Shown in pieces: positions 28,873 through 59,102 of a DNA stretch of 64,000 nucleotides. Where the stretch lies: assembly GCA_964016885.1 (NCBI GenBank), contig OZ024742.1:371070001-371134000 (forward strand), in the 5' to 3' direction. The stretch is from Eledone cirrhosa. Taxonomy: Eukaryota. The position numbers were made by a program, and so were the translations under genes. The notes below the pieces were generated by a model. It ran no database searches. It had not been told where the DNA came from and saw only the letters and a program-made list of their open reading frames with translations. Numbering within the stretch: the first letter of the stretch is position 1; the number at the start of each line of letters is the position of its first letter.

Positions 28873-29128
28873 TGTGGTTAGAAAAAGCTATCTCACTTAC
28901 CACTTTTCATAGGCGCCGCTAAATCCCAAGGCTGGTTTCTCCTCTTCCACATGCGTCCAACTCATTAACACCGGGAGCTGCCAAAACTCGCGTCCACACC
29001 GTTCCTGGTCACCACTAGAGAGAGGCCGATCTGCTGGCCCTTCCGGTCGAGCACCCTTCCGGCCAAGCACCCTTCCGGTCAAGCACTCTTCCGGTTGAGC
29101 ACTCCCCAGCTTCCGGCCACCGCACGCC
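28873..29128 (-). repeat. 3' LTR
   Basis: Near-identical to 32788-33031. Has four copies of a 16-bp CTTCCGGTCGAGCACC-like unit and lacks the terminal TGT on the PPT side. Confidence 0.93.
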
Positions 29129-29136
29129 CCCCCTGA
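29127..29136 (-). promoter_or_regulatory. Polypurine tract (plus-strand priming site)
   Basis: Minus strand TCAGGGGGGG lies immediately before the 3' LTR and just after the pol stop. Confidence 0.6.
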
Positions 29137-29138
29137 TC

Positions 29139-31910
29139 TCAAGGATCAATTTCCCCCTCGTCCTTCTGCATATGAAAGTCTGCTGTCCAGGTTGGTGGTT
29201 TGCAACTTCTTTGCGATCTCCGCAGTGTTGGGGCGGCACTTTGAGTTTCCTCTTCCTCGGAGTCCGTTGACACAGTGATTCTATGGACATCCAGGACATG
29301 ACGTGGTACTCCGTCCACGGACACATTGTTCTGGGAATTTACGGTCATCACCCATTGAGATGTGCAACGTGCATCTGGGGGCTTAACCCAGACTTCTTCG
29401 CCCACCTGCACGAATGCACTCTCTCTCCCCATTGGCCATTGTGGTGGCGTGCATGGGTGCCGCCACTCGTATCTGAATACTGCTCTGTGTGGCACTGATT
29501 CCTCGACCTGTTCCACCCGAGGGGACATGTTGTACCAGAACACTGCCTCCATTGGTGAGATATGGCCCCGCTCCGCCATTGCCTTGATCGTCCAGTGGTG
29601 TCACTCCACAATTCCATTCCCGCTCGGCCTGTGTGCTGCTCTGAAGAAACGGTTCACCTTCCATCCATCGAGCATCTCCCTCAGCGCCTCCGAGCGGAAC
29701 GCTGCGCTGTTGTCCATCAGCAGTTCGTCCACAGGGCCCCGCTCCAAGCAAAACTCTCTCAACGTCCACATGATTTCCTCGGCCGTTCCAGTCTTCATCT
29801 CCCTCCATATCGCCATCCGTCCTGGTCCACAGTCGACCATCGAGAGGTACGTTCCCCGTCGGTAACGCGTTACATCCACCGCCAATCGCTTCCAGTCACG
29901 ATCCACCGGGAGGCTTCCCGTTTCGTGCACACCCGGGGCGGGATCAATGGACTGACATCAGACGCAGCCTCTAACCACTCTTTGAACACTGTGTCTGTTA
30001 ACGCCCGAGTCGATTCTCCTGGCTAGGAACAGGCTCCTATCCACTCCCATGTGATGCATGTCATGCAACCCTTTCAGCCGACACACGGCAGCTATCTCAT
30101 CTTCTACCTCCTCCGGCGCTTCCATCCAGGCTTTCTTCACCCTGTTTAAGACGTCCGCCCTATTTTTCTCTGAGGGCACGAAAACTACGCTCAGCCTCAG
30201 GTCGAACTCGGTGGCCAGCTCTCCTAAAGTTCCTAGGCGGCACTTTATCAGCATCTCCGCCGCCCCTCTCTTCTCACTGGTGAGCACTGATCTCACCCAT
30301 CCGAGTACAGTAGCTGAGTCGGTGCATATCTTGATGGTGCGCAGTCCCCACTTCAGGGCGAGGTTCACCCCTCTCAACACTGCGTCCAGTTCGGCCACAT
30401 TGATGTGGTTGCAGTCGTCCTTCTTCCTAAGCCAGGCTGCATCCTCGACCTCAACACCTCCTATCTCCAACGTGACACCCAGCGGTATGCTGCTGGCATC
30501 GCACCATACGGTCCCACTCTGCGATTTGGGAACATACCAGCGTCCCCGCACTGGGTCGTCGGCCTTCACCCTCCCCACGATCTCCTGCATCATGGCCACC
30601 GTCCTCTCTCCCACTCTGTCACTCCAAGTCACTCCTCCCGCTCGTCTCTTGACATAGCTGCATGCCGTCCGGAGCCACCCAGCGATCGGGTAGTGACCCA
30701 CCAACTTTCCACACACCGAGAAAAGCTCCCGGCTACTCATACTTGGGCCCAGTTCTGGAACTTCATTTCCCCTCTGGAATACCAAGACGCCCGTCCTGTC
30801 TCGCCGTAGCCTAAGTCCCAGCGCGGCTCCTCCCTCCAACGCTTCTGATGGCTTCGCAGCCAGTCCATACCCCTGTAAATGGCTCGTAACCTCTGCTGCC
30901 GACACCACAGACTCGTCCACTAGGATGTCGTCAATGTAGGAGTTAGTGGCCCTCTTCATCTTGTCGGCCTTTCCCAGAATGGTCTTAAGGACCGCCGCCA
31001 TGATCTTCGGTGCGGAGCTCAGCCAGAAACCGAGCCTGGTCAGGCAATATGTCCGGCCCTTATACCTGACCAGCTGATACTGCCAGAGCTTCTCATCTAT
31101 ATGCAATTGCAAGTATGCCGACTTTATATCTACGATTGCTGAACCCCCAGTCATGCGTCTCCACTCACGCAGGGTTTCCCCACAGACATCCGTGACCTCG
31201 CCACCCGTGTGGCATGACACGTGCTCGTTCAGCTCCCGAAAGTCCAGCACCGGCCTCACCTTGTTCTTCGTGGGTTGCGCCACCGCCATTAACAGCAATA
31301 CTTCGCACTTCACCTCCTCTTTCCAGTGAAGCAGTATGCCCTCCTCAATCCATCTCTCTACCTCTTGCTTGAACTCGCTCCTAATGTTTCCCTTCAATGT
31401 GTGTTGATAGCAGCCCACTTTGGTCTTCAGTGTTGGTGGTTCTCCCTTCCAGTACCACTCAACAACCCATCGCTGCCATTCGAACACGGCCTTGAAGTCT
31501 TTGTCCTGCACAGTGTAAGCGGGGTATTTCTCCTCGTGGGCCTTCTGGCTCTCCTGTCGCGTACTCACAGCGCATACCGATGCAGCGCCGCCAAACGACA
31601 CACCGACATTGTTCACTGTGACGCCTCCTAGACGGCCAATTGTGTCCATGCCCATAACCACGCCAATCCCATCCACCATGTTGTCAACTACGATGGCAGA
31701 AAGCCTTATTTTCCTTCCCCGTACCGCCATCTCCACCTCGCTGCGACCTCGGCATTCAATTTTCCTGCTGTCGACTGCCCTTACACTGCTCTTCCCTCTC
31801 CACCGCTGCGCCACCCCTGCGGTCACCAGTGTCGTCGTACAGCCCGTGTCCACGAGGGCTCGCTGTGGCTTTCCCCTCACGAAGACTTCCAACACGGGCA
31901 GCGCCTCTAC
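29139..31910 (-). pseudogene. pol: pol polyprotein (protease, RT, RNase H, integrase) with two internal in-frame TGA stops
   Basis: ALVDTGC (protease), LDFRELN and YIDD (RT), WCDAS/HINVAELDAV/TDS (RNase H), H-x3-H...C-x2-C, then AVDVT/LMDN/GNGIVE (integrase). ORFs 29958-31895, 29601-29930 and 29139-29579 share one frame, separated only by TGA at 29958-29960 and 29601-29603. Confidence 0.92.
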
Positions 31911-31958
31911 TCATAAGGGGCAACTACCGGCGCAGTAGTTCCCCTTGGATCGTTTCCC
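31901..31958 (-). promoter_or_regulatory. -1 programmed ribosomal frameshift signal (G GGA AAC plus stem-loop/pseudoknot) at the gag-pol junction
   Basis: Heptamer GGGAAAC is correctly phased in the gag frame (31958-31952). A 5-nt spacer is followed by stem AAGGGG-AACTAC / GTAGTT-(G)-CCCCTT, and loop GCGCC is complementary to downstream GGCGC. pol is in the -1 frame. Confidence 0.8.
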
Positions 31959-32665
31959 TGGTCGCAGTTAGTAGCGATGTGGCCTGGTCGCTTACACCGG
32001 TAGCATATTATTTCCGGCCTTGACTCTCTACAGTCTCTCGCCATGTGCGGGCCCTGGCACCTAAAACAGCGACCTCTAAAGGTTCGCGGGTGACCGCGTG
32101 CCGTGGTTGCCTCCCTTTCACCATTTCGCTGCCAGCTGTCTTGAGCCTCTGTAGTTGCTATCGCCGTGACACTCTTCTTGGCATCTTCTGCTATGATCCG
32201 GGCTTGTTCCACCAGTGAACACATTTCCATTTCTTTGTAACCCGGGACTTGCTGCAGTTTCACCGCTATGTCGTCTGGAAATCCATTTATGAACGCCAAC
32301 CGCACCGTGCGTTCGCATTCCACCTGATATCCAGCCAACATGGCCAATCGCCGTATTTCCGCTGCGAAAATGTCAACGCGTTCACCGTTCCATCTAATTC
32401 TTGCCAGCTTAGCAAAAGCGGCTAACGGTCCCTCTGCGAACGCTTCCATCATGTGCCTCTCAATCTTTTGCGCATCTCTTTGGCTGTGTTCATCTAACTC
32501 AAGGAAGAGTACCAACGTGCCCCCCTCGAGGTACAGTGCCATGAGGCCAGCCACATCTACCTTCTGTAAGCTTGTGACTAGCCGGACTTTTCGCAGCCAA
32601 GCGACAACATCGCCTTCCCCGGTAAATGCCCTGATAGCTTCGCTTGTTCGTAGTCTCGTTGCCAT
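31907..32665 (-). CDS. gag: Gag-like protein, 252 aa, two CCHC zinc knuckles
   Basis: Intact ORF with CFRCQGPHMARDC and CYRCKRPGHIATNC, lying between the PBS and pol. Confidence 0.92.
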   Translation of the reverse strand: MATRLRTSEAIRAFTGEGDVVAWLRKVRLVTSLQKVDVAGLMALYLEGGTLVLFLELDEHSQRDAQKIERHMMEAFAEGPLAAFAKLARIRWNGERVDIFAAEIRRLAMLAGYQVECERTVRLAFINGFPDDIAVKLQQVPGYKEMEMCSLVEQARIIAEDAKKSVTAIATTEAQDSWQRNGEREATTARGHPRTFRGRCFRCQGPHMARDCRESRPEIICYRCKRPGHIATNCDQGNDPRGTTAPVVAPYE

Positions 32666-32775
32666 ATCCTAATTTGTCTTGCGGTACGTGATAAAAAAAA
32701 CAAAACAGACTCCTCTCTGTTTTTCCAGTAGCTTTTTTTTTTTTCTTTTTTTTTTCAATCAGATCTGTTTCCAGT

Positions 32776-32787
32776 GCCGAAATAGCT
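32776..32787 (-). promoter_or_regulatory. Primer-binding site complementary to tRNA-Phe nt 1-12
   Basis: Plus strand GCCGAAATAGCT abuts the LTR TGT with no gap and equals the first 12 nt of metazoan cytosolic tRNA-Phe(GAA) (GCCGAAATAGCTCAGTTGGG..., recalled). Confidence 0.85.
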
Positions 32788-33031
32788 TGTGGTTAGAAAA
32801 AGCTATCTCACTTACCACTTTTCATAGGCGCTGCTAAATCCCATTGCTGGTTTCTCCTCTTCCACGTGCGTCCAACTCATTAACACCCAGGAGCTGCCAA
32901 AACTCGCGTCCACACCGTTCCTGGTCACCACTAGAGAGAGGCCGATCTGCTGGCCCTTCCGGTCGAGCACCCTTCCGGTCAAGCATTAATCCGGTCGAGC
33001 ACTCCCCAGCTTCCGGCCACCGCACGCCACA
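32788..33031 (-). repeat. 5' LTR (244 bp, TGT...ACA)
   Basis: TGTGG...CCACA termini and three copies of the 16-bp internal unit. Confidence 0.95.
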
Positions 33032-33361
33032 CCATATAAAATAAATAGGATGGGTTGGGGTCTCAATATCTTAACTAAACAACTGATTCTGGTTATAAAA
33101 AAAAAAAAATTTTTTTAAAAAAAAGCAAACAAGGGAGACAACCTAGAAAAATTACCACTTTTTTTCACCTCTAGCCCACCTTATTATTTCGTACCTGAGA
33201 ATACTTTAGCTAGATGTGTAATTATTGTTTAGCATCAGATCAACCTCAAATGATCAGAGGCATTCAATCTATGACCATCCTGTCATTTTGTATATCAGAA
33301 ATTACATTATCCACAATAAAATGTACCTAGTACATTTTATAACGGAGTTGGCATTTTTTTG

Positions 33362-36118
33362 TTTGATACCAAACTGCCTGAAACTACCCCTGGTTCTATG
33401 GTACAAAGCTGTTCATTTTGATACCAAACTGCCTGAAACTACCCCTGGTTCTATGGTACAAAACTGTTCATTTTGATACCAAACTGCCTGAAACTACCCC
33501 TGGTTCTATAGTACAAAGCTGTTCATTTTGATACCAAACTGCCTGAAACTACCCCTGGTTCTATGGTACAAAGCTGTTCATTTTGATACCAAACTGCCTG
33601 AAACTACCCCTGGTTCTATGGTACAAAGCTGTTCATTTTGATACCAAACTGCCTGAAACTACCCCTGGTTCTATGGTACAAAGCTGTTCATTTTGATACC
33701 AAACTGCCTGAAACTACCCCTGGTTCTATAGTACAAAACTGTTCATTTTGATACCAAACTGCCTGAAACTACCCCTGGTTCTATAGTACAAAACTGTTCA
33801 TTTTGATACCAAACTGCCTGAAACTACCCCTGGTTCTATAGTACAAAGCTGTTCATTTTGATACCAAACTGCCTGAAACTACCCCTGGCTCTATGGTACA
33901 AAACTGTTCATTTTGATACCAAACTGCCTGAAACTACCCCTGGTTCTATAGTACAAAGCTGTTCATTTTGATACCAAACTGCCTGAAACTACCCCTGGTT
34001 CTATGGTACAAAACTGTTCATTTTGATACCAAACTGCCTGAAACTACCCCTGGTTCTATGGTACAAAACTGTTCATTTTGATACCAAACTGCCTGAAACT
34101 ACCCCTGGTTCTATAGTACAAAGCTGTTCATTTTGATACCAAACTGCCTGAAACTACCCCTGGTTCTATGGTACAAAGCTGTTCATTTTGATACCAAACT
34201 GCCTGAAACTACCCCTGGTTCTATGGTACAAAGCTGTTCATTTTGATACCAAACTGCCTGAAACTACCCCTGGTTCTATAGTACAAAACTGTTCATTTTG
34301 ATACCAAACTGCCTGAAACTACCCCTGGTTCTATAGTACAAAGCTGTTCATTTTGATACCAAACTGCCTGAAACTACCCCTGGTTCTATGGTACAAAACT
34401 GTTCATTTTGATACCAAACTGCCTGAAACTACCCCTGGTTCTATAGTACAAAGCTGTTCATTTTGATACCAAACTGCCTGAAACTACCCCTGGTTCTATG
34501 GTACAAAACTGTTCATTTTGATACCAAACTGCCTGAAACTACCCCTGGTTCTATAGTACAAAGCTGTTCATTTTGATACCAAACTGCCTGAAACTACCCC
34601 TGGTTCTATGGTACAAAGCTGTTCATTTTGATACCAAACTGCCTGAAACTACCCCTGGTTCTATGGTACAAAACTGTTCATTTTGATACCAAACTGCCTG
34701 AAACTACCCCTGGTTCTATGGTACAAAGCTGTTCATTTTGATACCAAACTGCCTGAAACTACCCCTGGTTCTATGGTACAAAGCTGTTCATTTTGATACC
34801 AAACTGCCTGAAACTACCCCTGGTTCTATGGTACAAAGCTGTTCATTTTGATACCAAACTGCCTGAAACTACCCCTGGCTCTATGGTACAAAACTGTTCA
34901 TTTTGATACCAAACTGCCTGAAACTACCCCTGGTTCTATAGTACAAAGCTGTTCATTTTGATACCAAACTGCCTGAAACTACCCCTGGTTCTATGGTACA
35001 AAACTGTTCATTTTGATACCAAACTGCCTGAAACTACCCCTGGTTCTATGGTACAAAACTGTTCATTTTGATACCAAACTGCCTGAAACTACCCCTGGTT
35101 CTATAGTACAAAGCTGTTCATTTTGATACCAAACTGCCTGAAACTACCCCTGGTTCTATGGTACAAAGCTGTTCATTTTGATACCAAACTGCCTGAAACT
35201 ACCCCTGGTTCTATGGTACAAAGCTGTTCATTTTGATACCAAACTGCCTGAAACTACCCCTGGTTCTATAGTACAAAACTGTTCATTTTGATACCAAACT
35301 GCCTGAAACTACCCCTGGTTCTATAGTACAAAGCTGTTCATTTTGATACCAAACTGCCTGAAACTACCCCTGGTTCTATGGTACAAAACTGTTCATTTTG
35401 ATACCAAACTGCCTGAAACTACCCCTGGTTCTATGGTACAAAACTGTTCATTTTGATACCAAACTGCCTGAAACTACCCCTGGTTCTATAGTACAAAGCT
35501 GTTCATTTTGATACCAAACTGCCTGAAACTACCCCTGGTTCTATGGTACAAAGCTGTTCATTTTGATACCAAACTGCCTGAAACTACCCCTGGTTCTATG
35601 GTACAAAGCTGTTCATTTTGATACCAAACTGCCTGAAACTACCCCTGGTTCTATGGTACAAAGCTGTTCATTTTGATACCAAACTGCCTGAAACTACCCC
35701 TGGTTCTATGGTACAAAACTGTTCATTTTGATACCAAACTGCCTGAAACTACCCCTGGTTCTATGGTACAAAGCTGTTCATTTTGATACCAAACTGCCTG
35801 AAACTACCCCTGGTTCTATGGTACAAAGCTGTTCATTTTGATACCAAACTGCCTGAAACTACCCCTGGTTCTATGGTACAAAGCTGTTCATTTTGATACC
35901 AAACTGCCTGAAACTGCCCCTGGTTCTATGGTACAAAGATGTTCATTTTGAAAGTGTTTATACAGATCTAAAAACCTTTCACCATAATTTTATGTAAGAA
36001 CTTTTAAGTTACCTTTAAAACATCGACTTAATAATGAGGAGGTTAAATCCCTTCAAATTCTTATTTTGAAAATCATAGGTAGTGTCTTTCATTAGAAATA
36101 TGATAATGAAAGGGTTAA
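33362..36118. mobile_element. TTAA-type (piggyBac-like) MITE whose left subterminal 55 bp is tandemly amplified
   Basis: The array continues into non-repetitive sequence ending GAAAGGG-TTAA (TTAA at 36115-36118). The body and repeat unit are homologous to the reverse complement of the element at 46991-47233. Confidence 0.65.
33366..35950. repeat. Minisatellite, 47 copies of a 55-bp unit
   Basis: Unit ATACCAAACTGCCTGAAACTACCCCTGGTTCTAT(G/A)GTACAAA(G/A)CTGTTCATTTTG; 2585 bp / 55 = 47. Confidence 0.98.
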
Positions 36119-39397: not shown

Positions 39398-42090
39398 CAT
39401 CATCATCATCATCATCAACGTTTAACGTCCGTGTTCCACGCTTGCATGGGTTTGGACGGGGGTAGTCCCACTTGAGGCAAGAGTGATTGTCTTGCTCGCA
39501 TAGGACTGTCTGGCAGGTTTTCTACAGTTGGATGCCCTTCCTAACACCAACCACATTTACAGTGTGGGTCTGGGAGGTTTTTACCGTGTTGCCTACACGG
39601 CCACATTACAGCGTGGACTGTGTGTTTTTTTGTCGTGACACCTACACGATCTCATTTGTTTCGGCCTGGATGGCGCGGCACCAACATAACTTTACATAGA
39701 ACGGGGTGGTGTGGATGGGGTGGGGGTGGCGGCGGGAGGGGTGTATTTTGTTAGATATGCCTACTGGCAAGGCGGGTCTTCTCTGTTACTGAGTACCGCC
39801 AAAGGTCACGGTCCAGTGACATTGTCTTGGAGAGGTGTAAGTGTGTGAGGTCGGAGTTTATCAGCTCATCCCATGTTTTTCTAGGTCTGCCTATTCCGTG
39901 GCTACCGTCTATCTTTATTGCCCTGCACTTTGTAATACAGCTATCGACTTTCATGCGCATCACGTGTCCATACCAACGCAGCCTTCTCTCGAGTAAACAA
40001 CATCTGATCCCTCTTATCTCTAATTTTTTCCTTAGTTCGTTTATGCTTTGCCGTTCACGTATATTACTGTTACACATCCAGCGGAGCATGCAAGCTTCGT
40101 TCCTCTCTAGTCTGCGTATATCCTCTGCACACAATGCCCAGGTCTCACTACCATGCAACATTGCTGTTTGTATGCAGGCATCGTACAACCTGCCTTTCAT
40201 TTTTAGGGAGAACCCTTTAGCAGCTAATAGTGGTATAAGCTCTCTGAACTTTTTCCAACCAGTTCTGACTCTAGCTACAGTACTTTCAGAGCACCCTCCC
40301 CCACTGCTGATTTTATCGCCCAGGTAACGGAAGCTGTCCACTATTTCTATAGAACCCTCTGCGCAATTGAAAGAGCTAGTATTTTGTGGGCACTTGCTGC
40401 TACTTATTGCACCAGAACACCGGCCACATGTAAAGTCTATGTTCTTAGTTAGCTTACCTGTGATCCCACTACATCTTTTATGCACCCATACTTTGCATTT
40501 AGGACATAAGATGGAGTTTCTACCTACGCCTTTCCTACATACCGAGCACGACCATTTCCCAGAAGGGACCGCCGCCTTGTTTTCTTTCCTACAAACTAGA
40601 ACTTTGGTCTTAGCCAGGTTAATTTTAAGTCCTTTTGACTCTAGGCCGTGCTTCCATGTTTGGAATTTCTTCTCTAGCTCGGCCATTGATTCCGCTATGA
40701 GTGTCAGGTCGTCTGCGTATAGGAGTTCCCATGGGCAGCCTGTCTTGAACTCCTCTGTTATAGCCTGAAGGGCAATAATAAATAGTAGGGGGCTGAGAAC
40801 AGAGCCCTGATGGACGCCAACTTTTACGCTAAACTCTTCACTATATTCGTTGTTAATTCTAACCTTGCTGACTGTTTCTTTATACATGGCTTGTATAGCC
40901 CTCACAAGCCATTCGTCAACGCCTAGTTTTCTAAGAGCCCACCAGATAATGGAGCGGGGGACTCTGTCGAAGGCTTTCTCCAGGTCGACAAAAGCTAAGT
41001 AGAGGGGTTTACCTTTAGCTAGGTACTTCTCCTGTAGTTGTCGTACTATGAAAAGAGCGTCTGTGGTGCTTTTGCCTGACACAAACCCGAACTGCATTTC
41101 ATCTAGATCAATTCTCTCTCTGATTAGTTGCGCTATTACTTTTTCCGTGACCTTCATGACCTGGTCGATTAATTTAATGCCTCTATAGTTACTCCTATCT
41201 AGGGCGTCTCCTTTACCCTTATAACAGTTAACGATGATGCTGCTATGCCAGTCCTTCGGAACAACCCCATTCTGTACGACTTGGTTAACTATGCGGGTGA
41301 CCATGGTGTGTCCCACCGTGCCAGATGCCTTCAGCATCTCAGCAACTATTTCCGAAGGCCCAGCCGCCTTACCAGTCTTCATATCCTTGATTGCCTTACT
41401 TATTATACTCCCCTCGACTAACACTGCTGGTCCCTCTATCGGGTCGATAAGGGGGAGACTGTCTTTCTCCCATTTATTCTCCTCGTTTAGTAGCCTTTCA
41501 TAGTGACACTTCCAAGCTACCTTCTTATCAGTGTCGGTGATGGCAAGTATGCCATCATCGTTAAGTACACACTTCTCCCCGACAATATCACGGTTTTCCT
41601 TGACGCATTGCCTGGCAATCCTGAACACCTCACGTTTTTGGTCATCGCGTTGTAGAACATGCTTGAACTTTCTTTCCTCAGCTTCCCTTCTTGCTAAGTA
41701 CACTTCTCTCCTAGCTTCCCTCCTGGCCACTTGATAGTCTACTCTACTTCCCCCATCCCGCCATACTTTCCAAGCCTGCTTTTTGGCCTTAATTGACCCC
41801 TCCACCCTATTGTTCCACCACCATGTTACTCTCCTCCTGCCTACAGGCCTGCTCCAGCCACAGACTTCGTCTGTCGCCAACAGCAGGTTTGCTTTCAGAA
41901 ATTTCCACTGTCCCTCTATATTGTCCGATTCTAGATGCTCTTCCTTACTGTCGAAAGCATCAAGTAATATGCTTTGAAATTTATTTCTGGCTGTGGGGTC
42001 CTTTAGTTTCCATATTTTCCTCCTGAGGATAGTCCTCTTCTGCTGTCGAGTACGTCTCGTCCTGACTATGAGGTCGCTAATTATCAGTCT
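39398..42090 (-). mobile_element. RTE-clade LINE copy A, 5'-truncated, young, (GAT)n tail
   Basis: Uninterrupted ORF, a 3' UTR and a (CAT)n run on the plus strand at ~39398-39417. Confidence 0.95.
39751..42090 (-). CDS. RTE ORF (end of APE linker, RT with embedded PHD-type finger); no true start, 5'-truncated
   Basis: KAAGP, NYRGIKL, QFGF, FVDLEKAFD, GVHQGSVLSP, LYADD, FRYLG, RRLRWYGHV. The frame stays open 70 codons upstream of the listed start (RLIISDL...WKLKD). Confidence 0.92.
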   Translation of the reverse strand, partial: RLIISDLIVRTRRTRQQKRTILRRKIWKLKDPTARNKFQSILLDAFDSKEEHLESDNIEGQWKFLKANLLLATDEVCGWSRPVGRRRVTWWWNNRVEGSIKAKKQAWKVWRDGGSRVDYQVARREARREVYLARREAEERKFKHVLQRDDQKREVFRIARQCVKENRDIVGEKCVLNDDGILAITDTDKKVAWKCHYERLLNEENKWEKDSLPLIDPIEGPAVLVEGSIISKAIKDMKTGKAAGPSEIVAEMLKASGTVGHTMVTRIVNQVVQNGVVPKDWHSSIIVNCYKGKGDALDRSNYRGIKLIDQVMKVTEKVIAQLIRERIDLDEMQFGFVSGKSTTDALFIVRQLQEKYLAKGKPLYLAFVDLEKAFDRVPRSIIWWALRKLGVDEWLVRAIQAMYKETVSKVRINNEYSEEFSVKVGVHQGSVLSPLLFIIALQAITEEFKTGCPWELLYADDLTLIAESMAELEKKFQTWKHGLESKGLKINLAKTKVLVCRKENKAAVPSGKWSCSVCRKGVGRNSILCPKCKVWVHKRCSGITGKLTKNIDFTCGRCSGAISSSKCPQNTSSFNCAEGSIEIVDSFRYLGDKISSGGGCSESTVARVRTGWKKFRELIPLLAAKGFSLKMKGRLYDACIQTAMLHGSETWALCAEDIRRLERNEACMLRWMCNSNIRERQSINELRKKLEIRGIRCCLLERRLRWYGHVMRMKVDSCITKCRAIKIDGSHGIGRPRKTWDELINSDLTHLHLSKTMSLDRDLWRYSVTEKTRLASRHI

Positions 42091-42420
42091 CTATATATAT
42101 AAACAGGACACAGGGATACATTAACACAGTATTATTAGTTTCATGTGCTGAAAAAGGAAAATGAATGTTTCAACATACCAGATGTTAGTCTTTCTTTGGG
42201 AACCAGCAAAATTCAGTAGGAAGGATGGATGGGTGTGGTGGGGTGTGTATGTATACCATCGTCATCATTTAACGTCTACTTTCCACACTAGCATGAGTTA
42301 GACACACACACACGTATACACGCTCCCCTTCCATACACATGCACACACGTGTGTGTGCATGTGTGTATATCAAAACTGATACACTGTTCACTTTCCTGAC
42401 ATTTGTACATTATTCTATGT

Positions 42421-44166
42421 AGCTAGGTACTTCTCCTGTAGTTGTCGTACAAGGAAAAGAGCGCCTGTGGTACTTTTACCTGGCAGTTTGGGTTTGTGTC
42501 AGGTAAAAATACCACAAACACTCTTTTCCTTGTACGAGAAGTACCTAGCTAAAAGTAAACCCCTATACTTAGCTTTTGTTGACTTGGAGAAAGCCTTTGA
42601 CAGGGTCCCCCGCTCCATTATCTGGTGGGCTCTTAGTAAGCAAGGTGTTGATGAATGGCTTGTGAGAGCTATAGAAGTCATGTATAAAGAAACAGTCAGC
42701 AAGGTTAGAATTAACAACGAATAGAGTGAAGAATTTAGCGTAAAAGTCGGTGTTCATCAGGGCTCTGTCCTTAGCCTCCTCCTATTTATTATTGCCCTTT
42801 AGGCTATAACAGAGGAGTTCAAGACCATGGGAACTTCTATACGCAGATGATCTAACGCTCATAGCTGAATCAATGGCTGAACTAGAGAAGAAATTCCAAA
42901 CATGGAAGCATGGCCTAGAATCAAGAGGCCTTAAAATTAACTTGTCTAAGATTAAAGTTCTAGTATGTAGAAAGGAAAATAGGGCACTGGTCCCATCTGG
43001 GAAATGGCCATGCTCAGTGTGTAGGAAAGGAGTAGGCAGAAACTCCATTTTATGTCCCAAATGCAAAGTATGGGTGCATAAAAGATGTAGTGGGATCACA
43101 GGTAAACTAACTAAGAACATAGATTTTATATGTGGCTGGTGCTCAGGTGCAATAAGTAGTAGCAAGTGCCCACAGGATACTAGCTCCTTCCATTGCCCAG
43201 ATGGTTCTATAGAAATAGTGGACACCTTCCGTTACTTGGCTGACAAAATCAGCAGTGGTGGAGGGTGCTCTGAAAGTACAGTAGCTAGAGTCAGAACTGG
43301 ATGGAAAAAGTTCAGAGAGCTTATACCACTATTAGCCGCTAAAGGGTTCTCTCTAAAAATGAAAGGCAGACTGTATGATGCCTGCATACAAACAGCGATG
43401 TTACATGGCAGTGAGACATGGGCATTGTGTGCAGAGGATCTACGCAGACTGGAGAAGAATGAAGCTTGCATGCTCCGCTGGATGTGTAATAGTAATATAC
43501 GTGAACGGCAAAACATAAATTAACTAAGTGAGAAATTAGGAATAAGAGGGATCAGATGCTGTTTACTCGAGAGAAGACTACGTTGGTATGGTCACGTGAT
43601 GCGCATGAAAGACGACAGCTGTATAAAAAAAGTGCAGGGCGATCAAAATTGATGGAAGCTACGGAGTAGGCAGACTCAGAAAAACCTGGGACGATTTGAT
43701 AAATTTCGACCTTACACACTTACACCTCTCCAAGACAGTGTCGCTGGACCGAGATCTTAGGCGCTACGCAGTAATACAGAAGACCCGTCTTGCCTAAGTA
43801 CAAAGCGAAACCTACAGTCAGTAGGCACCTCCTAACCAAAAATACACCCACATCCCACTACCCCCATTTCTCTGTAAAGTTATGTTGGTGCCACAACATC
43901 CAGTCCTAAACAAATGAGGTCGTGTAGGTGTCACGACAAAAAAAACACAGTCCACGCTGTAATGTGGACATGTAGGTAACACAGTAAAAATCTCCCAGTC
44001 CACACTGTAAACCTGGTTGGTGTTAGGAAGGGCACCCAGCTGTAGAAAACCCGCCAGACAGTCCTGTACGAGCAAGACAACCAATCTTGACTCACGTGGA
44101 ACAATTCCTGTCTAAACCCATGCTAGCGTGGAAGATAGATGTTAAACGATGATGACGATGATGATG
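42421..44166 (+). mobile_element. RTE LINE copy B (same family as A), decayed, with a 5' fold-back, inserted into a CR1 3' UTR
   Basis: Close match to copy A in the opposite orientation, with stops and frameshifts and a (GAT)n tail at ~44148-44166. The flanks join to give the CR1 UTR seen intact at 26620-26680. Confidence 0.93.
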
Positions 44167-45391: not shown

Positions 45392-46112
45392 TGTGCGCGT
45401 GTGTTAAAAGTTATTTTAAGTCACAGTTAAGCGATTTCTTAGAAATAAAACACTAAATAGAGAATTTTAAATATCTGTCCACTGCCGTTTGAATTTAATT
45501 AAGAACAGAAAGAGAAAAACTTAAACTTTCGGATCAAAGTTTTCTAAAGAAAATACATACACACGCATATACATACATTGTTATGCTTTCTGTTTTTGAA
45601 AGCAAAAAAGAAAACAGCTACACTCTGGTATATCATCACTACCATCACCTTTAAAACGAAAACACTTGTTAGACGTAGATTATTCGAAAAGTACCTTGGA
45701 GATAAGCAACCTAACTACGCAATTTTGATTTGAAGAACTCTATAAAATTATGTCATGCCACCCATTGACCAATAACTTCTGAAGTTGTAGGGGAACATTT
45801 GTGACTTACCGTGTAACTTGGTGGCACCCATCCCTTTCTACGTCTGAGATTTTTGTCACCGAGTTAGAAAGACAGACCGAAAGAATTGATCCCCAGAACT
45901 GGACTGGTGCTTTGTTTATTGACATCGAAAGGATAAAATGAGAATTTGACCTCGGCAGGATTTGAACTCATAGAACAAGAGAGCCGGAATTAAAACAGTC
46001 CACACATCGTTCTATCCGACGTTTTAACGACAGCTAATTCGCCACCTACAACTTGTAAAAAATAAAAATCAGGAAGAAAAGTACTCGAACATTCGTTCCC
46101 ATCCTGAAAACT

Positions 46113-46994
46113 ATGGCGATTTTCAAAGAACTGTTTCTGTCAACGAGACCATGGTCCTTTTCGGCCTCAGCTATTCCGAGTATCATTGGGATAATCCTGG
46201 CGACAAAAGATCACAACTCCAGTCCGACTTTGTCTCTTATTAGCAATACATTACTCACGGTAATTTTTATACATGCTGCCGGTAATTTGAACAATACTTT
46301 CTGTGATTTCATAAACGGAGTTGATAAGAAAGATTCCACACACGACCGAACCCTCACTGAAGCCAAACTAACCAAAGACCAGCTCCTATTGTTGTTAATC
46401 ACTTGTTATATTGATTCTCTTTTCTCATTCTCCTTCATCGTGGTTTATTCCTCGGCTTCTTATATCACCTTGATTATTCTGTATAGCCTGGGAATTGCTA
46501 GCAGTTTCATCTACACCGGTTGGATAGCCCTCAAATACAGAGCACTTGGCGATTTGTTGGTCTTATTAACGTTTGGACCTTTAGTAGCGGAGTTTTCTTA
46601 TCTCAGCTGTAGTGGAGTGTTGTCCGGAAGGACAGTAGTTCTAGTCCTTCCAATGGCAACTAATGCCGTTGCTATACTCAACGCCAACAACATGAGAGAT
46701 ATAACAGCAGATAGAAAATCAGGAATTCTCACTTTGCCCATGATACTTGGAACACACATTTCCCGTTGGATGATGATAGTGTTGCTTTTTTCGTCTTACA
46801 TAAATTTTCTCCTCATAATTGGAGTCACACATAACCTGCTCTTTGCTTTGCCGACGTTCACTGCACCTGTTGCGGCCCAGCTTTACAAACGTGTACATAG
46901 ACTTGACATGGTCGGACTTCCCGAGACATTGGCCAAACTAAATTTAGTGCAAGGTTTGCTCTACTGCTTCGCTCTTCTTCTTTCAAACATTTAA
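46113..46994 (+). CDS. UBIAD1/MenA-family prenyltransferase, divergent paralog, single coding exon, 293 aa
   Basis: RPWSFSAS, HAAGNLNNTFCDFINGVD..HDRTL, YTG..LKYRALGD, NNMRDITAD..GILTL motifs and many transmembrane segments. Confidence 0.93.
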   Translation: MAIFKELFLSTRPWSFSASAIPSIIGIILATKDHNSSPTLSLISNTLLTVIFIHAAGNLNNTFCDFINGVDKKDSTHDRTLTEAKLTKDQLLLLLITCYIDSLFSFSFIVVYSSASYITLIILYSLGIASSFIYTGWIALKYRALGDLLVLLTFGPLVAEFSYLSCSGVLSGRTVVLVLPMATNAVAILNANNMRDITADRKSGILTLPMILGTHISRWMMIVLLFSSYINFLLIIGVTHNLLFALPTFTAPVAAQLYKRVHRLDMVGLPETLAKLNLVQGLLYCFALLLSNI

Positions 46995-52539: not shown

Positions 52540-55180
52540 ACTAACTGTGGTTAAAGTGCTCAAATGTTGCAAAGCCGCTGGGGAAGATGAAATCCGGCCC
52601 AGGATGTTAAAAAGGTACTCTCCGTCTAGTGTGCATACTGTTACTTCTGTTCATTATTACATGAACCGGATTGACATGCACAGCCAGGTTGGAAGTGATA
52701 TCATGACTGGCAGGTGTAAAATCAGTCAGCTGAAATTTATAGATGACAATAGCACAGTTGATTAGGGACTGGGTGAAACTAGATGAGATGCAATTTGGGT
52801 TTGTGCCAGGAAGAGGCACCACTGATGCCCTCTTCCTTGTGAGGCAGTTACAGGAAAAGTATCTAGCTAAAAGTAAGCCACTCTACCTGGTATTCGTCGA
52901 TCTCGAGAAAGCCTTTGAAAGAGTTCCCCATGCTATAATCTGGTGGGCTCTTAGAAAACTAGGAGTAGAAGAATGGCTTGTGAAAGCCATGTATAGGGGA
53001 GCAGTCAGCAAAGTTAGGATTAGCAATGAGTATAGCGAGGAATTTAGCGTACAGGTCGGTGTCCACCAGGGCTCTGTTCGTAGCCCTCTCCTGTTCATCA
53101 TAGTCCTGCAGGCAATAACAGAGGAGTTTAAGATCAGATGCCCATGGGAACTCCTGTATGCAGATGACCTCGCACTTATAGCTTAATCTATGGTAGAACG
53201 AGAGAAGAAATTCCAAACTTGAAAACAGGGACTAGAAAGAAAGGGTCTCAAAGTCAACCTGACAAAGACTAAGGTCCTTGTAAGTAGACAAGAAAACAGA
53301 ACCCAGATCCCCTCAGGGAAATGGCTTTGCTCAGTATGTAGGAAAGGTGTAGGTAGGAACTCCATTCTCTGCCCCAAATGCAAACAATGGGTACACAAGA
53401 GATGTAGCGGGATCTCAGGAAGCCTAACTAAGAATGTAGGCTTCACATGTAGCAGCTGTGCTGGGACAGCAAACAGCCACAGGAAACAAGTACCTCCAAA
53501 CTCTGGGAGGGCTCTGTAGAAACAGTAGACAGCTTCTGTTACCTAGGTGACCGAATTAGCAACGGAGGTGGGTGTTCGGAAAGTACAATAACTAGGGTAA
53601 GAACAGGATGGAAGAAGTTCAGAGAGCTACTGCTAGTGCTAGCTGCAAAAGGCTTTTCCCTCAAAATGAAAAGCAGACTGTATGATGCGTGTATACGAAC
53701 AGCAATGTTACATGGTAGTGAGACCTGGGCGCTGAAGGTGGAAGACTGACGTAGATTAGAAAGAAACGAAGCCTGCATGCTCCGATGGATGTGTAATAGT
53801 AATATTATACGTGAATGGCAAAGCATAAATGAATTGAGAGAGAGACTGAGCATAAGAGGAATCAAATGCTGTGTGCAGGAGAGGCGGTTGCGTTGGTATG
53901 AACATGTGATGCGTATGAAGGATGACAACTGCATAAAAAGGTGCAGAGCAGTAGAAGTCGATGGAAACCGCGGAGTAGGGAGACCCAAGAAGACCTGGGA
54001 TGAGGTGATAAAAGCCGACCTTACCCAATTACACCGCTCAAAAGCGATGACACATGACCGTGACCTCTGGCGTTACGCAGTAATACAGAAGACCCGACGC
54101 CCCCACGGGTACAAGCCGAAGCTGAAGCATATAGACAATACGTCCCCACACCCTCCCACTGCAAAGTGGTCGTGGAGGTGCCACGGCAAAAAAGCACCCA
54201 GCCCACACTGTAAAGTGGATATGTAGGCGCCACGGAAAAAAAGTACCTAGCACTCACTGTAAATGAGATTGGTGTTAGGAAGGGCATCCAGCTTTAGAAA
54301 TCAAGCCAGAATCAGTTTCCGTATGAGCAAGACAAGGTCAGCCGACTGGACACTGCCCACAACAGGACAGCCCACCTAACCCATGCTAGCGTGGAAGAAC
54401 GGACGTAAAACGGTGTTGATGATGATGGTGTTATTTAACACGACAGGTGATTTCTGACTTGCACTTGATAAGTTTGATGCTAAGCGCTGCATGGCAGGAA
54501 CGAAAATCAGTGCTGCAAAAACTGAGACACTTGTCCTCTCAAGGAAGTCACACAATGCACTCCACATGTGAATGGAGTTTCACTGAAGGAGGTGGAGATG
54601 TTCAAGTATCTCAGGGCTGTGTTCATGAATGATGGAATGGAGGAGGCTGAATTAATTGCAAGAATTGCAGGGGATAGTGCAGTAATGTATCAGCTTCAGC
54701 ATTTACTAATCAGAAGAAGGGAGATAGGTGTAAACGCCAAACCTCTTTAATTCAGTATTCGTGCCAACTCTTACTTATGGTCATGAATCTCAGATAATGA
54801 CCAAAAGGATTCGATTGCAAGTGGCTGAAATGGGGTTACGCTGAAGGGTCTTTGTAGTAACGTTACTCAATAGAGTGTGTAGCTTGGAGATCAGAGAGTC
54901 ACTCCAAGTAGATCCGCTACTTCTCTGAATTGAGAGATCACAGCTCCGATGCTATGGGTATGTGGTTAGAATGTCCCAGAAAAGAATCACTGGACAGATT
55001 TTGTGGGCAAAACCAACTGGGGGTAGACCCTGAGCAAGATGGTTGGATAACATCTATGAGCTTTGCTTGTCTTGCTTGGGGATCCAGCTGGATCAGTTGG
55101 AGACAGTTGCTTCTGACAAGACCTGCTGGAAGGAGTGTTTGAGGACTCTGCTCCCATGACCCTCTCTGGAATAACTGGAC
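52540..55180 (+). mobile_element. Old RTE LINE (different family, no PHD finger) split by RTE copy C
   Basis: KAAGEDEI...FIIYMNRI...LKFIDD, then the insertion, then VLF...KTETLV...VEMFKYL...PTLTYGHES...RSQLR.YGYVVRM. Confidence 0.8.
52749..54427 (+). mobile_element. RTE LINE copy C (PHD-containing family), decayed, 5'-truncated
   Basis: IAQLIRD..LDEMQFGF...LYADD...CSVCRKGVGRNSILCPKC...RRLRWYEHV, with several stops and a GAT tail at ~54418-54427. Confidence 0.92.
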
Positions 55181-57526: not shown

Positions 57527-58471
57527 TCAGTGTTTTAGTGCAAATATACAGGCTAGAACATAAAGTAGTCCAAAAATAAAATTCAGCCGTGCCACTTTCC
57601 TGGGCAATTGTTCCAAGTGGCGGTAACGAAAATATCTCTCTAATTTAAAGGATTCAAACACTGTTAAGAGAGGTAGGAAATACCATTTGGAATAGTGTAG
57701 TCCCATGTAGACAAAGGCAATATAAGGCAAGAATAAAAGAGTCACAAACAATATATAGGAGCCAGTATGGCCCAGTAGAATGGCTAAGGTAACAATCCCA
57801 GCAGCTGTATCACTCTCCATGTGTCGAGTATTATTGCAATGAAGAACTGCTTCAGCACTGATAGCTAAAGGAATGGCGTAAAAAATGAGTTCGTTCGACA
57901 GTTTGCCGGTTTGTGAAAGAAAGGCGAACACAACAGTGAGAGGCCCGAATGTGAGGAATACAACCACATCTCCTAGAGCGATATACTTGAGTCCGAGACC
58001 TCCTGTGTAGAGGAAACTTCCAGATAGTCCTCCAAAGTAAATGAGAGCTAAGTGTTCCATACGAGCAGGTGACATATAGGCAAGCAACAAAAATCCACAA
58101 CATCCCAACACGTAAGAAAACCCTCCCAACCAGGCAATGTCGCCCGGCGTCAATACACAATCAACTAACGTGTTATGACTAGCATCTTTCTTTTTCTTGG
58201 AGTCGATTCCTCGGACATAATCGACATATGTGTTGACAAGGTTTCCAGCAGCGTGGACAGAGAGGGCTGTTAGACAAGTGACCAGTGATATAAGAAGGCT
58301 AAATTCGGCATGTTCCACATAAGCAAGGGCGCTTCCGAGAGCAACTGGTGTGAAAGATGACGTGAAGGACCACGGCCGCAGAGCTGCCAAGTATTTAGAC
58401 AATTCCTGTGAACGAGATGTTTTCTCTGGACGGTAGTGATTCTCATCTTTAACATGGCTATTATTTTGCAT
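57527..58471 (-). CDS. UBIAD1: UbiA prenyltransferase domain-containing protein 1 (UBIAD1/heix ortholog-like), single coding exon, 314 aa
   Basis: Long near-identical blocks to vertebrate UBIAD1 (ALRPWSF..TPVALGSALAY, EHLALIYFGGLSGSFLYTGG.G.KY.ALGD, AGIVTLAIL). ATG at 58471 with an in-frame upstream TAA. Confidence 0.95.
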   Translation of the reverse strand: MQNNSHVKDENHYRPEKTSRSQELSKYLAALRPWSFTSSFTPVALGSALAYVEHAEFSLLISLVTCLTALSVHAAGNLVNTYVDYVRGIDSKKKKDASHNTLVDCVLTPGDIAWLGGFSYVLGCCGFLLLAYMSPARMEHLALIYFGGLSGSFLYTGGLGLKYIALGDVVVFLTFGPLTVVFAFLSQTGKLSNELIFYAIPLAISAEAVLHCNNTRHMESDTAAGIVTLAILLGHTGSYILFVTLLFLPYIAFVYMGLHYSKWYFLPLLTVFESFKLERYFRYRHLEQLPRKVARLNFIFGLLYVLACIFALKH

Positions 58472-59102
58472 CACTTCAGTAGAAGTTTTTTAGCTTATGT
58501 AGAGTGTGGGATAGTGTTTCTAACACGTCCCTCTAATTGTGAAAAGCCACATATAACAGCGATCACTCAATAGAACTGATGATTCAGAAGAAACATTTAA
58601 AGAGGTGAGGGAGAGAACTATTAATAAATTTAAACACTTGATATTACAAAAATAGGAAATGACAAAGAAACGAAACGAAAAACGAAAATTAATATAACGC
58701 AAAGTCAATATAATAAAATTAATTATGAAACCAATCAGAATTGATCATTGATTAAAATAGTTTTTAAATATTATATCAATTATTAGAACCTAATACATTT
58801 AAACTCTATTAATCTTGAGTTTGAATAATGTTTAATGGAAAAATCAACGCAGTGTGTTTATATGGTAAATGTATATATATATATATGTGTGTGTGTGTGT
58901 ATAAATGTATAGTGAATACGTTTATGTTTCTGTGTATGTGTTGATGTTTGTATGTGTGTGTGTGTATGATAAATTGCCCGTCTGTGTCAATGTACGAATG
59001 AGTGTAAAAAAAGCACACATACACAAATATATATACATACAAATATATGCATATTTATATAAATCTCTATATATATATATGTGTGTGTATACATACATAT
59101 TA

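Follow-up and report, generated by a model that had tools for sequence, protein, structure and literature searches.

How an LTR retrotransposon might prime reverse transcription when the sequence behind its 5′ LTR does not correspond to a tRNA 3′ end is the question raised by an element on the minus strand of the 64,000-nucleotide stretch of Eledone cirrhosa DNA analyzed here (the window). The element runs from ~33036 to 28873, lineage elements being about 4.2 kb, and is bounded by two LTRs of about 250 nt that are 90% identical in this copy. The 5′ LTR (32788..33036, minus strand) has its terminal CA at 32789-32788, and the family's TG start is unrecognizable over its first ~6 nt; the 3′ LTR (28873..~29124-29128, minus strand) has a CA end and lacks the first ~18 nt of the family LTR. 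Because the LTR starts are damaged, the window copy is without a TSD. The LTR boundary is nevertheless fixed independently, since the 3′ LTR at the other end of the element matches the 5′ LTR.

Between the LTRs, all on the minus strand, lie a gag ORF (31907..32665) encoding 252 amino acids with two CX2CX4HX4C knuckles and a pol frame (29139..31910) with the order protease, RT (YIDD), DUF7047, RNase H and integrase and no tether domain. Two in-frame stops break the pol frame near 29960 and 29603, and the D-E-D-D acidic residues of RNase H are visible in its translation. A polypurine tract (29125..29134) precedes the 3′ LTR, and a leader of ~110 nt that contains a long A tract (32666-32775) separates the primer-binding site (PBS) from gag in the window's family.

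Elsewhere in the window, positions 1-25156 hold 322 copies of a 78-bp satellite built of 38- and 40-bp subunits, and 47 copies of a 55-bp unit form a tandem array at 33362-35951. RT and PHD-finger ORFs (39751-42090, minus strand; 42810-43523, plus strand) are located in long inverted arms at 39401-44166, with a further inverted partial copy of this unit near 52748-54310. Two intronless UbiA prenyltransferase ORFs are present on opposite strands, at 46059-46994 and 57527-58489.

Directly behind the 5′ LTR, the sequence at 32776..32787 (minus strand) exactly complements nt 1-12 of tRNA-Phe(GAA), with zero spacing between the terminal CA of the LTR and the 12-mer. The initial annotation had assigned the feature to 32776..32790; the PBS does lie inside this interval, but its last 3 nt (32788-32790) belong to the LTR. 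The proposed complementarity to tRNA-Phe was borne out by the host genome, in which 247 matches to a 15-nt start pattern were found, ARAGORN called tRNA-Phe in nine of ten scanned loci, and the first nucleotides of the tRNA-Phe(GAA) genes are exactly complementary to the PBS. Some of these genes (L035-L040; G000:C4:117.36-117.54 Mb) are part of a tandem array of tRNA-Phe and tRNA-Asn genes with a period of about 1.26 kb, in which some T arms are altered. No TGG-type site follows the 5′ LTR, as had also been claimed: the best duplex between the tRNA-Phe 3′-CCA end and the first 40 nt reaches only −8.9 kcal/mol, versus −21.1 kcal/mol for the tRNA-Phe 5′ end with the PBS region. The match covers exactly nt 1-12. 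Pairing of tRNA nt 13-14 with the LTR end is impossible, which sets the duplex at exactly 12 bp.

Genome-wide, there are 527 occurrences of CA plus the 12-mer but a single one of the reversed control. Among 30 loci chosen by DNA similarity across the junction, a biased set that includes the window itself, 29 gave a junction, 27 of them exact. This bias is avoided in a hand-picked set (top-ranked and long-frame) of 40 from the 150 copies found by RT alone; 36 of these have a 5′ junction, which is exact in 35, the remaining one carrying a single change. None of the three findings that the initial annotation had named as contrary to its reading, namely a conventional TGG PBS in other copies, a 12-mer that is not conserved or a host tRNA-Phe with a different start, was obtained.

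Intact host copies have TG..CA ends and, in the 25 that could be scored (15 of the 40 could not), a TSD of 5 bp in 17, of 4 bp in two and none in six; their LTR pairs are 83-100% identical (16 copies). A second family (L263 and L265), whose LTR has no DNA similarity to that of the window, likewise shows TG..CA ends, a 5-bp TSD and the same flush PBS. Its member L263 (G000:C1:47706500-47712000), at ~1.8 kb and with no pol, has the 5-bp TSD and the PBS and is likely a non-autonomous derivative.

Beyond the host genome, a metagenome scan with protein sequence only recovered 63 related loci at 34-58% identity, whereas a search of viral contigs for relatives found none. The PBS motif is present in 42 of the 63 loci and in 38/38 of those that cover the gag start with >40 nt upstream, a count obtained with a gag profile that derives from 26 loci bearing the motif and might overlook divergent gags. 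A chance match of the 12-mer, for which the shortness of 12 nt might speak, is refuted: with 60 tRNA starts considered and the position fixed, its probability is about 4e-6, every one of the 38 distant relatives keeps the 12-mer, and the likelihood left to coincidence is negligible.

In 35 non-redundant junctions from these relatives, the terminal C and A of the LTR are conserved at 0.91 and 1.0, respectively, PBS positions 1-6 and 9-12 at 0.89-1.0, and positions 7-8 at 0.71 and 0.31. At +13, which lies past G1 of the tRNA, conservation is down to 0.37, and +14 is not conserved either. The suggestion of the initial annotation that the PBS mimics the acceptor strand past the duplex ("...GGCAC") therefore failed, and complementarity by itself already makes the PBS resemble the 3′ acceptor strand.

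Sorted by type, the 35 junctions comprise TT (9), CG (9), CA (7), CC (2), CT (1), a Met type (2) and five singletons. For the CG, CA and CT variants, exactly complementary 5′ ends exist among eukaryote-type tRNA-Phe(GAA) genes, but as the search patterns were derived from the PBS variants and hosts were unmatched, these matches show only that the PBS appears to vary where tRNA-Phe varies in nature. Also in favor of covariation, no site of CG, CA or CC type was present among 24 pattern matches in the element's own genome (the reversed-pattern control, at 1387, is uninformative). In the Met type (L114 and L117), 5 of the 12 positions differ from the Phe type, and the resulting 12-mer is exactly complementary to nt 1-12 of tRNA-Met(CAT) genes found in the genome of the window. 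The changes include the base at the LTR edge, which covaries with tRNA nt 12. At the level of sequence comparison, the Met type is a putative primer switch through five compensating changes that keeps the rule of 12. The host tRNA-Met(CAT) genes (L174-L187) form a tandem cluster on contig C2 and carry an intron of 21-22 nt after the anticodon.

Not every variant found a partner. No retrieved eukaryote-type tRNA matches the singletons L088, L090, L109, L112 and L118 or the CC-type L073/L096 among the 35 junctions. The complement of the L109 PBS gave 0 own-genome matches, and a tRNA-Lys assignment for it was dropped. The tRNAs of phages and bacteria (Thr, Ile, Phe, Leu and Met) that start with variant complements are not host-relevant and were not counted as support. 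The tRNA-Phe genes complementary to the CG, CA and CT variants lie next to A34 tRNAs in genome records and are probable contaminants; eukaryote-type tRNA clusters with A34 anticodons and T-run terminators in prokaryotic MAG records (L273-L277, L281, L283, L297, L299 and L301) probably represent contamination. In a tree of 37 rows, which was midpoint-rooted with no outgroup, omits L121 as too short and does not place the lineage, the PBS types are interleaved.

A PBS that is flush with the LTR and of Tf1-like length could also be read as a site for self-priming, the start of the element's own transcript pairing with the PBS and the tRNA match being incidental. In the window's family the LTR end can fold back on the PBS: a U5 stretch (32799..32808, minus strand) is able to pair with the first 9-10 nt, giving a local hairpin of −13.0 kcal/mol over a 60-nt region that is not general across the lineage. 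When 33 elements were compared, however, the strongest pairing of the PBS with upstream sequence did not surpass that of shuffled sequence (mean z −0.17) and left 3-6 of the 12 positions mismatched, although z is below −2 in two of them (L117 and L118), and the 25 own-genome LTRs show 3-5 mismatches; a PBS complementary to the element's own LTR, the trait of Tf1/sushi elements, was thus absent from both sets. The PBS also stays constant while the LTRs are unrelated. Self-priming is in these respects already largely refuted and is very improbable.

We consider it likely that the 12-mer from the tRNA 5′ end is the primer. For this, the PBS, aided by the two-knuckle nucleocapsid, is predicted to invade the acceptor and D stems of the tRNA. 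In energies computed without modified bases or tertiary structure, opening these stems costs 14.7 kcal/mol and the hybrid returns −21.1 kcal/mol; the cofold is at −45.6 kcal/mol versus −34.9 kcal/mol for the two RNAs apart, which favors the 12-bp hybrid by about 11 kcal/mol. Strand invasion is thus predicted by the model to be favorable. Because nt 13-14 of the tRNA cannot pair with the LTR end, the 3′-OH would have to arise at nt 12. The RT would measure from the tRNA 5′ end, with RNase H cutting the RNA duplex, which would amount to the Tf1 reaction in trans. Minus-strand DNA would begin at the terminal CA of the LTR with no spacer, and plus-strand strong-stop DNA would run off the 5′ end of the primer and re-copy exactly 12 nt. 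Such a run-off would account for the sharp 3′ edge of the PBS, with no need for a modified-base stop.

At the position behind that edge (+13), a single-purine indel is found in 28 of 57 copies and would fit non-templated addition at the run-off end. It is absent in 29/31 copies of one subfamily and present in 26/26 of another; as it mostly tracks these two subfamilies, it reflects few events.

The intact tRNA might instead only be anchored by the 12-mer, for packaging, dimerization or translation control, with priming from another 3′ end such as the CCA at a second site. The tRNA is bound in bipartite fashion in Ty3 and Ty1, whose bipartite PBSs offer a precedent, and translation control is thinkable given that 0-22 nt separate the PBS from the first ATG in 34 of the 35 relatives, unlike the ~110-nt leader of the window's family. 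Minus-strand DNA must, however, start at the LTR edge, where the 12-mer is the sole conserved sequence; there is no CCA-end site within the first 40 nt, and the covariation of the LTR-edge base with tRNA nt 12 also argues against mere anchoring, which we regard as quite unlikely. A conserved splice donor near the LTR end was seen in only 4 of the 35 relatives. In L090, L112, L114, L115 and L117, pol is in the −1 frame and overlaps gag, which suggests frameshift expression; L091 differs.

The same primer could also have another maker. A host nuclease would cut the tRNA in or near the D-loop, and the 5′ fragment would anneal and have its tail trimmed to nt 12. Host RNases that cut in or near the D-loop to yield 5′ tRNA fragments of 13-26 nt are described in PMC10275265. 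A free fragment needs no strand invasion, and this route fits all the sequence evidence equally well. The reported fragments are longer than 12 nt, though, so that extra trimming would be required, and the fixed length of 12 in both Phe and Met types suggests a single enzyme measuring from the 5′ end; host cleavage is accordingly judged the unlikelier route, if one with some standing.

Cutting by the element itself has a model in the cleavage of an RNA duplex by the Tf1 RNase H, reportedly described by Levin in 1996. By this analogy, the RNase H of the element is the most likely maker of the 3′-OH at nt 12. The full version of the proposal, in which the tRNA is cut after nt 12 and the element's own RNase H does the cutting, seems to us evenly balanced between right and wrong. 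A little more tentative still is the combined reading, in which an unnamed, superfamily-level DUF7047 lineage has an RT that would open a host tRNA, measure 12 nt from its 5′ end and cut the D stem, and would represent a fourth primer class.

The element belongs to a lineage marked by DUF7047 that is without a name here. No description of DUF7047 was found in the literature searched. The hosts of the lineage include octopods, crustaceans, Hydra and many aquatic hosts; among named relatives, the closest comes from Argonauta (67% over 419 columns) and others from Petrolisthes, Oratosquilla and Hydra. In the ESM Atlas, DUF7047 clusters made up of eukaryotic proteins without names rank first for the lineage protein. 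Its structure is predicted (pLDDT 85) as an RT-RNase H with no tether, which a fold search matched to the RT-RNase H folds of foamy virus, HIV and CaMV, with 12-16% identity to these solved enzymes.

The significance of the PBS depends on its primer being genuine. A survey of plant elements (PMC6317226) recognizes three primer types: a whole tRNA, a half tRNA generated by cleavage in the anticodon stem, and a self-primer. A PBS for the 5′ 12 nt of a tRNA was not described in the literature searched, which lay outside Repbase Reports, GyDB, Dfam and most subscription journals. The proposed priming would be a form of truncated-tRNA priming, and there is a fair chance that it constitutes a primer class of its own, the fourth, within a superfamily that has no name. 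If so, the tRNA 5′ 12-mer would be a fourth primer type, 5′ fragments of tRNAs could prime reverse transcription, and a natural intermediate would bridge tRNA priming and Tf1 self-priming. Fragments from the 5′ rather than the 3′ end of tRNAs would then be predicted to compete for or silence elements of the lineage. Since PBS finders search tRNA 3′ ends, the whole lineage would be reported as having "no PBS", and the 12-mer would serve as a simple tag for finding it.

Comparison with known systems begins with Troyka (Kuafuorterviridae), the lineage for which, according to the initial annotation, this trait had been reported. The link to Troyka did not hold. The words tRNA, primer and PBS have 0 occurrences in the main texts of PMC12440569 and PMC11673190, from which the Troyka features were taken. 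Shared with Troyka are the lack of an envelope, aquatic-animal hosts, a putative position outside the classic LTR groups, the PR-RT-RH-IN order, the absence of a tether and of a GPF/Y motif, and short LTRs. Four features differ: the LTR termini are TG..CA rather than CG..CG, the TSD is 5 bp rather than 3 bp, the Gag knuckle is CX2CX4HX4C (spacing 4 in 77 of 88 matches across the 63 metagenome loci) rather than CX2CX8-10HX4C, and the RT motif is Y(I/V)DD rather than (I/V/L)ADD. Among 216 proteins, YIDD was found in 139, YVDD in 46 and YLDD in 13, with an xADD string anywhere in eight. The lineage motif was absent from the 95-, 80- and 418-RT alignments in the supplement of PMC11673190, in which gaps could hide it. 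The gag and pol frames are separate, unlike those of Troyka, and the PBS type differs too: in the part of that supplement available, three of six Troyka-type records show TGG directly after a TGGCG LTR end, the other three appearing reversed. Membership in Troyka was rejected on these four features and the TGG.

With Metaviridae (Ty3/Gypsy) the element shares the PR-RT-RH-IN order, TG..CA ends, a TSD within 4-6 bp and a polypurine tract, and with Belpaoviridae the domain order, TG..CA ends, a 5-bp TSD and a polypurine tract. It differs from both in the presence of DUF7047, the lack of a Gypsy RT_RNaseH or Pao Peptidase_A17 match, and the PBS type. The GPF/Y integrase motif was found in 1 of 197 long proteins, although it is absent in some Gypsy lineages too. 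Lineage proteins showed no match to PF17917 or PF17919, a PDB sequence search returned no Ty3 RT at E<=1, and the lineage profile matched host Gypsy RTs weakly, at about 45 bits (best 46.6), no reference RT set being included in the tree. Peptidase_A17 (PF05380) was detected in 0 of 6 full-length relatives and not in the window protein; a search of the own genome for Pao gave one weak match, for which reason the tree is without a BEL outgroup. Pseudoviridae (Ty1/Copia) were rejected because the integrase lies downstream of RNase H rather than upstream of RT.

As to priming, PMC4600332 and PMC6317226 describe in Tf1/sushi elements (Tf1, Tj1) a short primer cut from an RNA 5′ end, a PBS by the LTR and cleavage before priming, all of which would recur here. 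The partner in this case would be a host tRNA in trans rather than the element's own transcript, there is no LTR complement, and the element is not a chromovirus. A link to Ajax/Helenus was rejected, as Ajax employs the tRNA-Leu 3′ end according to the available part of PMC10886601, in which only 3′-end and anticodon-loop PBSs are described; the portion of PMC12859917 available adds nothing further. Half-tRNA-primed Ty1/copia elements (Osser, Bryco and Bianca; fungal Copia, Helenus) are alike in that a 3′-truncated host tRNA would prime. In the parts of PMC6317226 and PMC10886601 available, half-tRNA priming, reported there for Copia alone, involves a cut in the anticodon stem and a PBS that corresponds to the anticodon region. 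By contrast, the PBS described here corresponds to nt 1-12 only, it is the D stem that would be cut, and the domains are ordered PR-RT-RH-IN.
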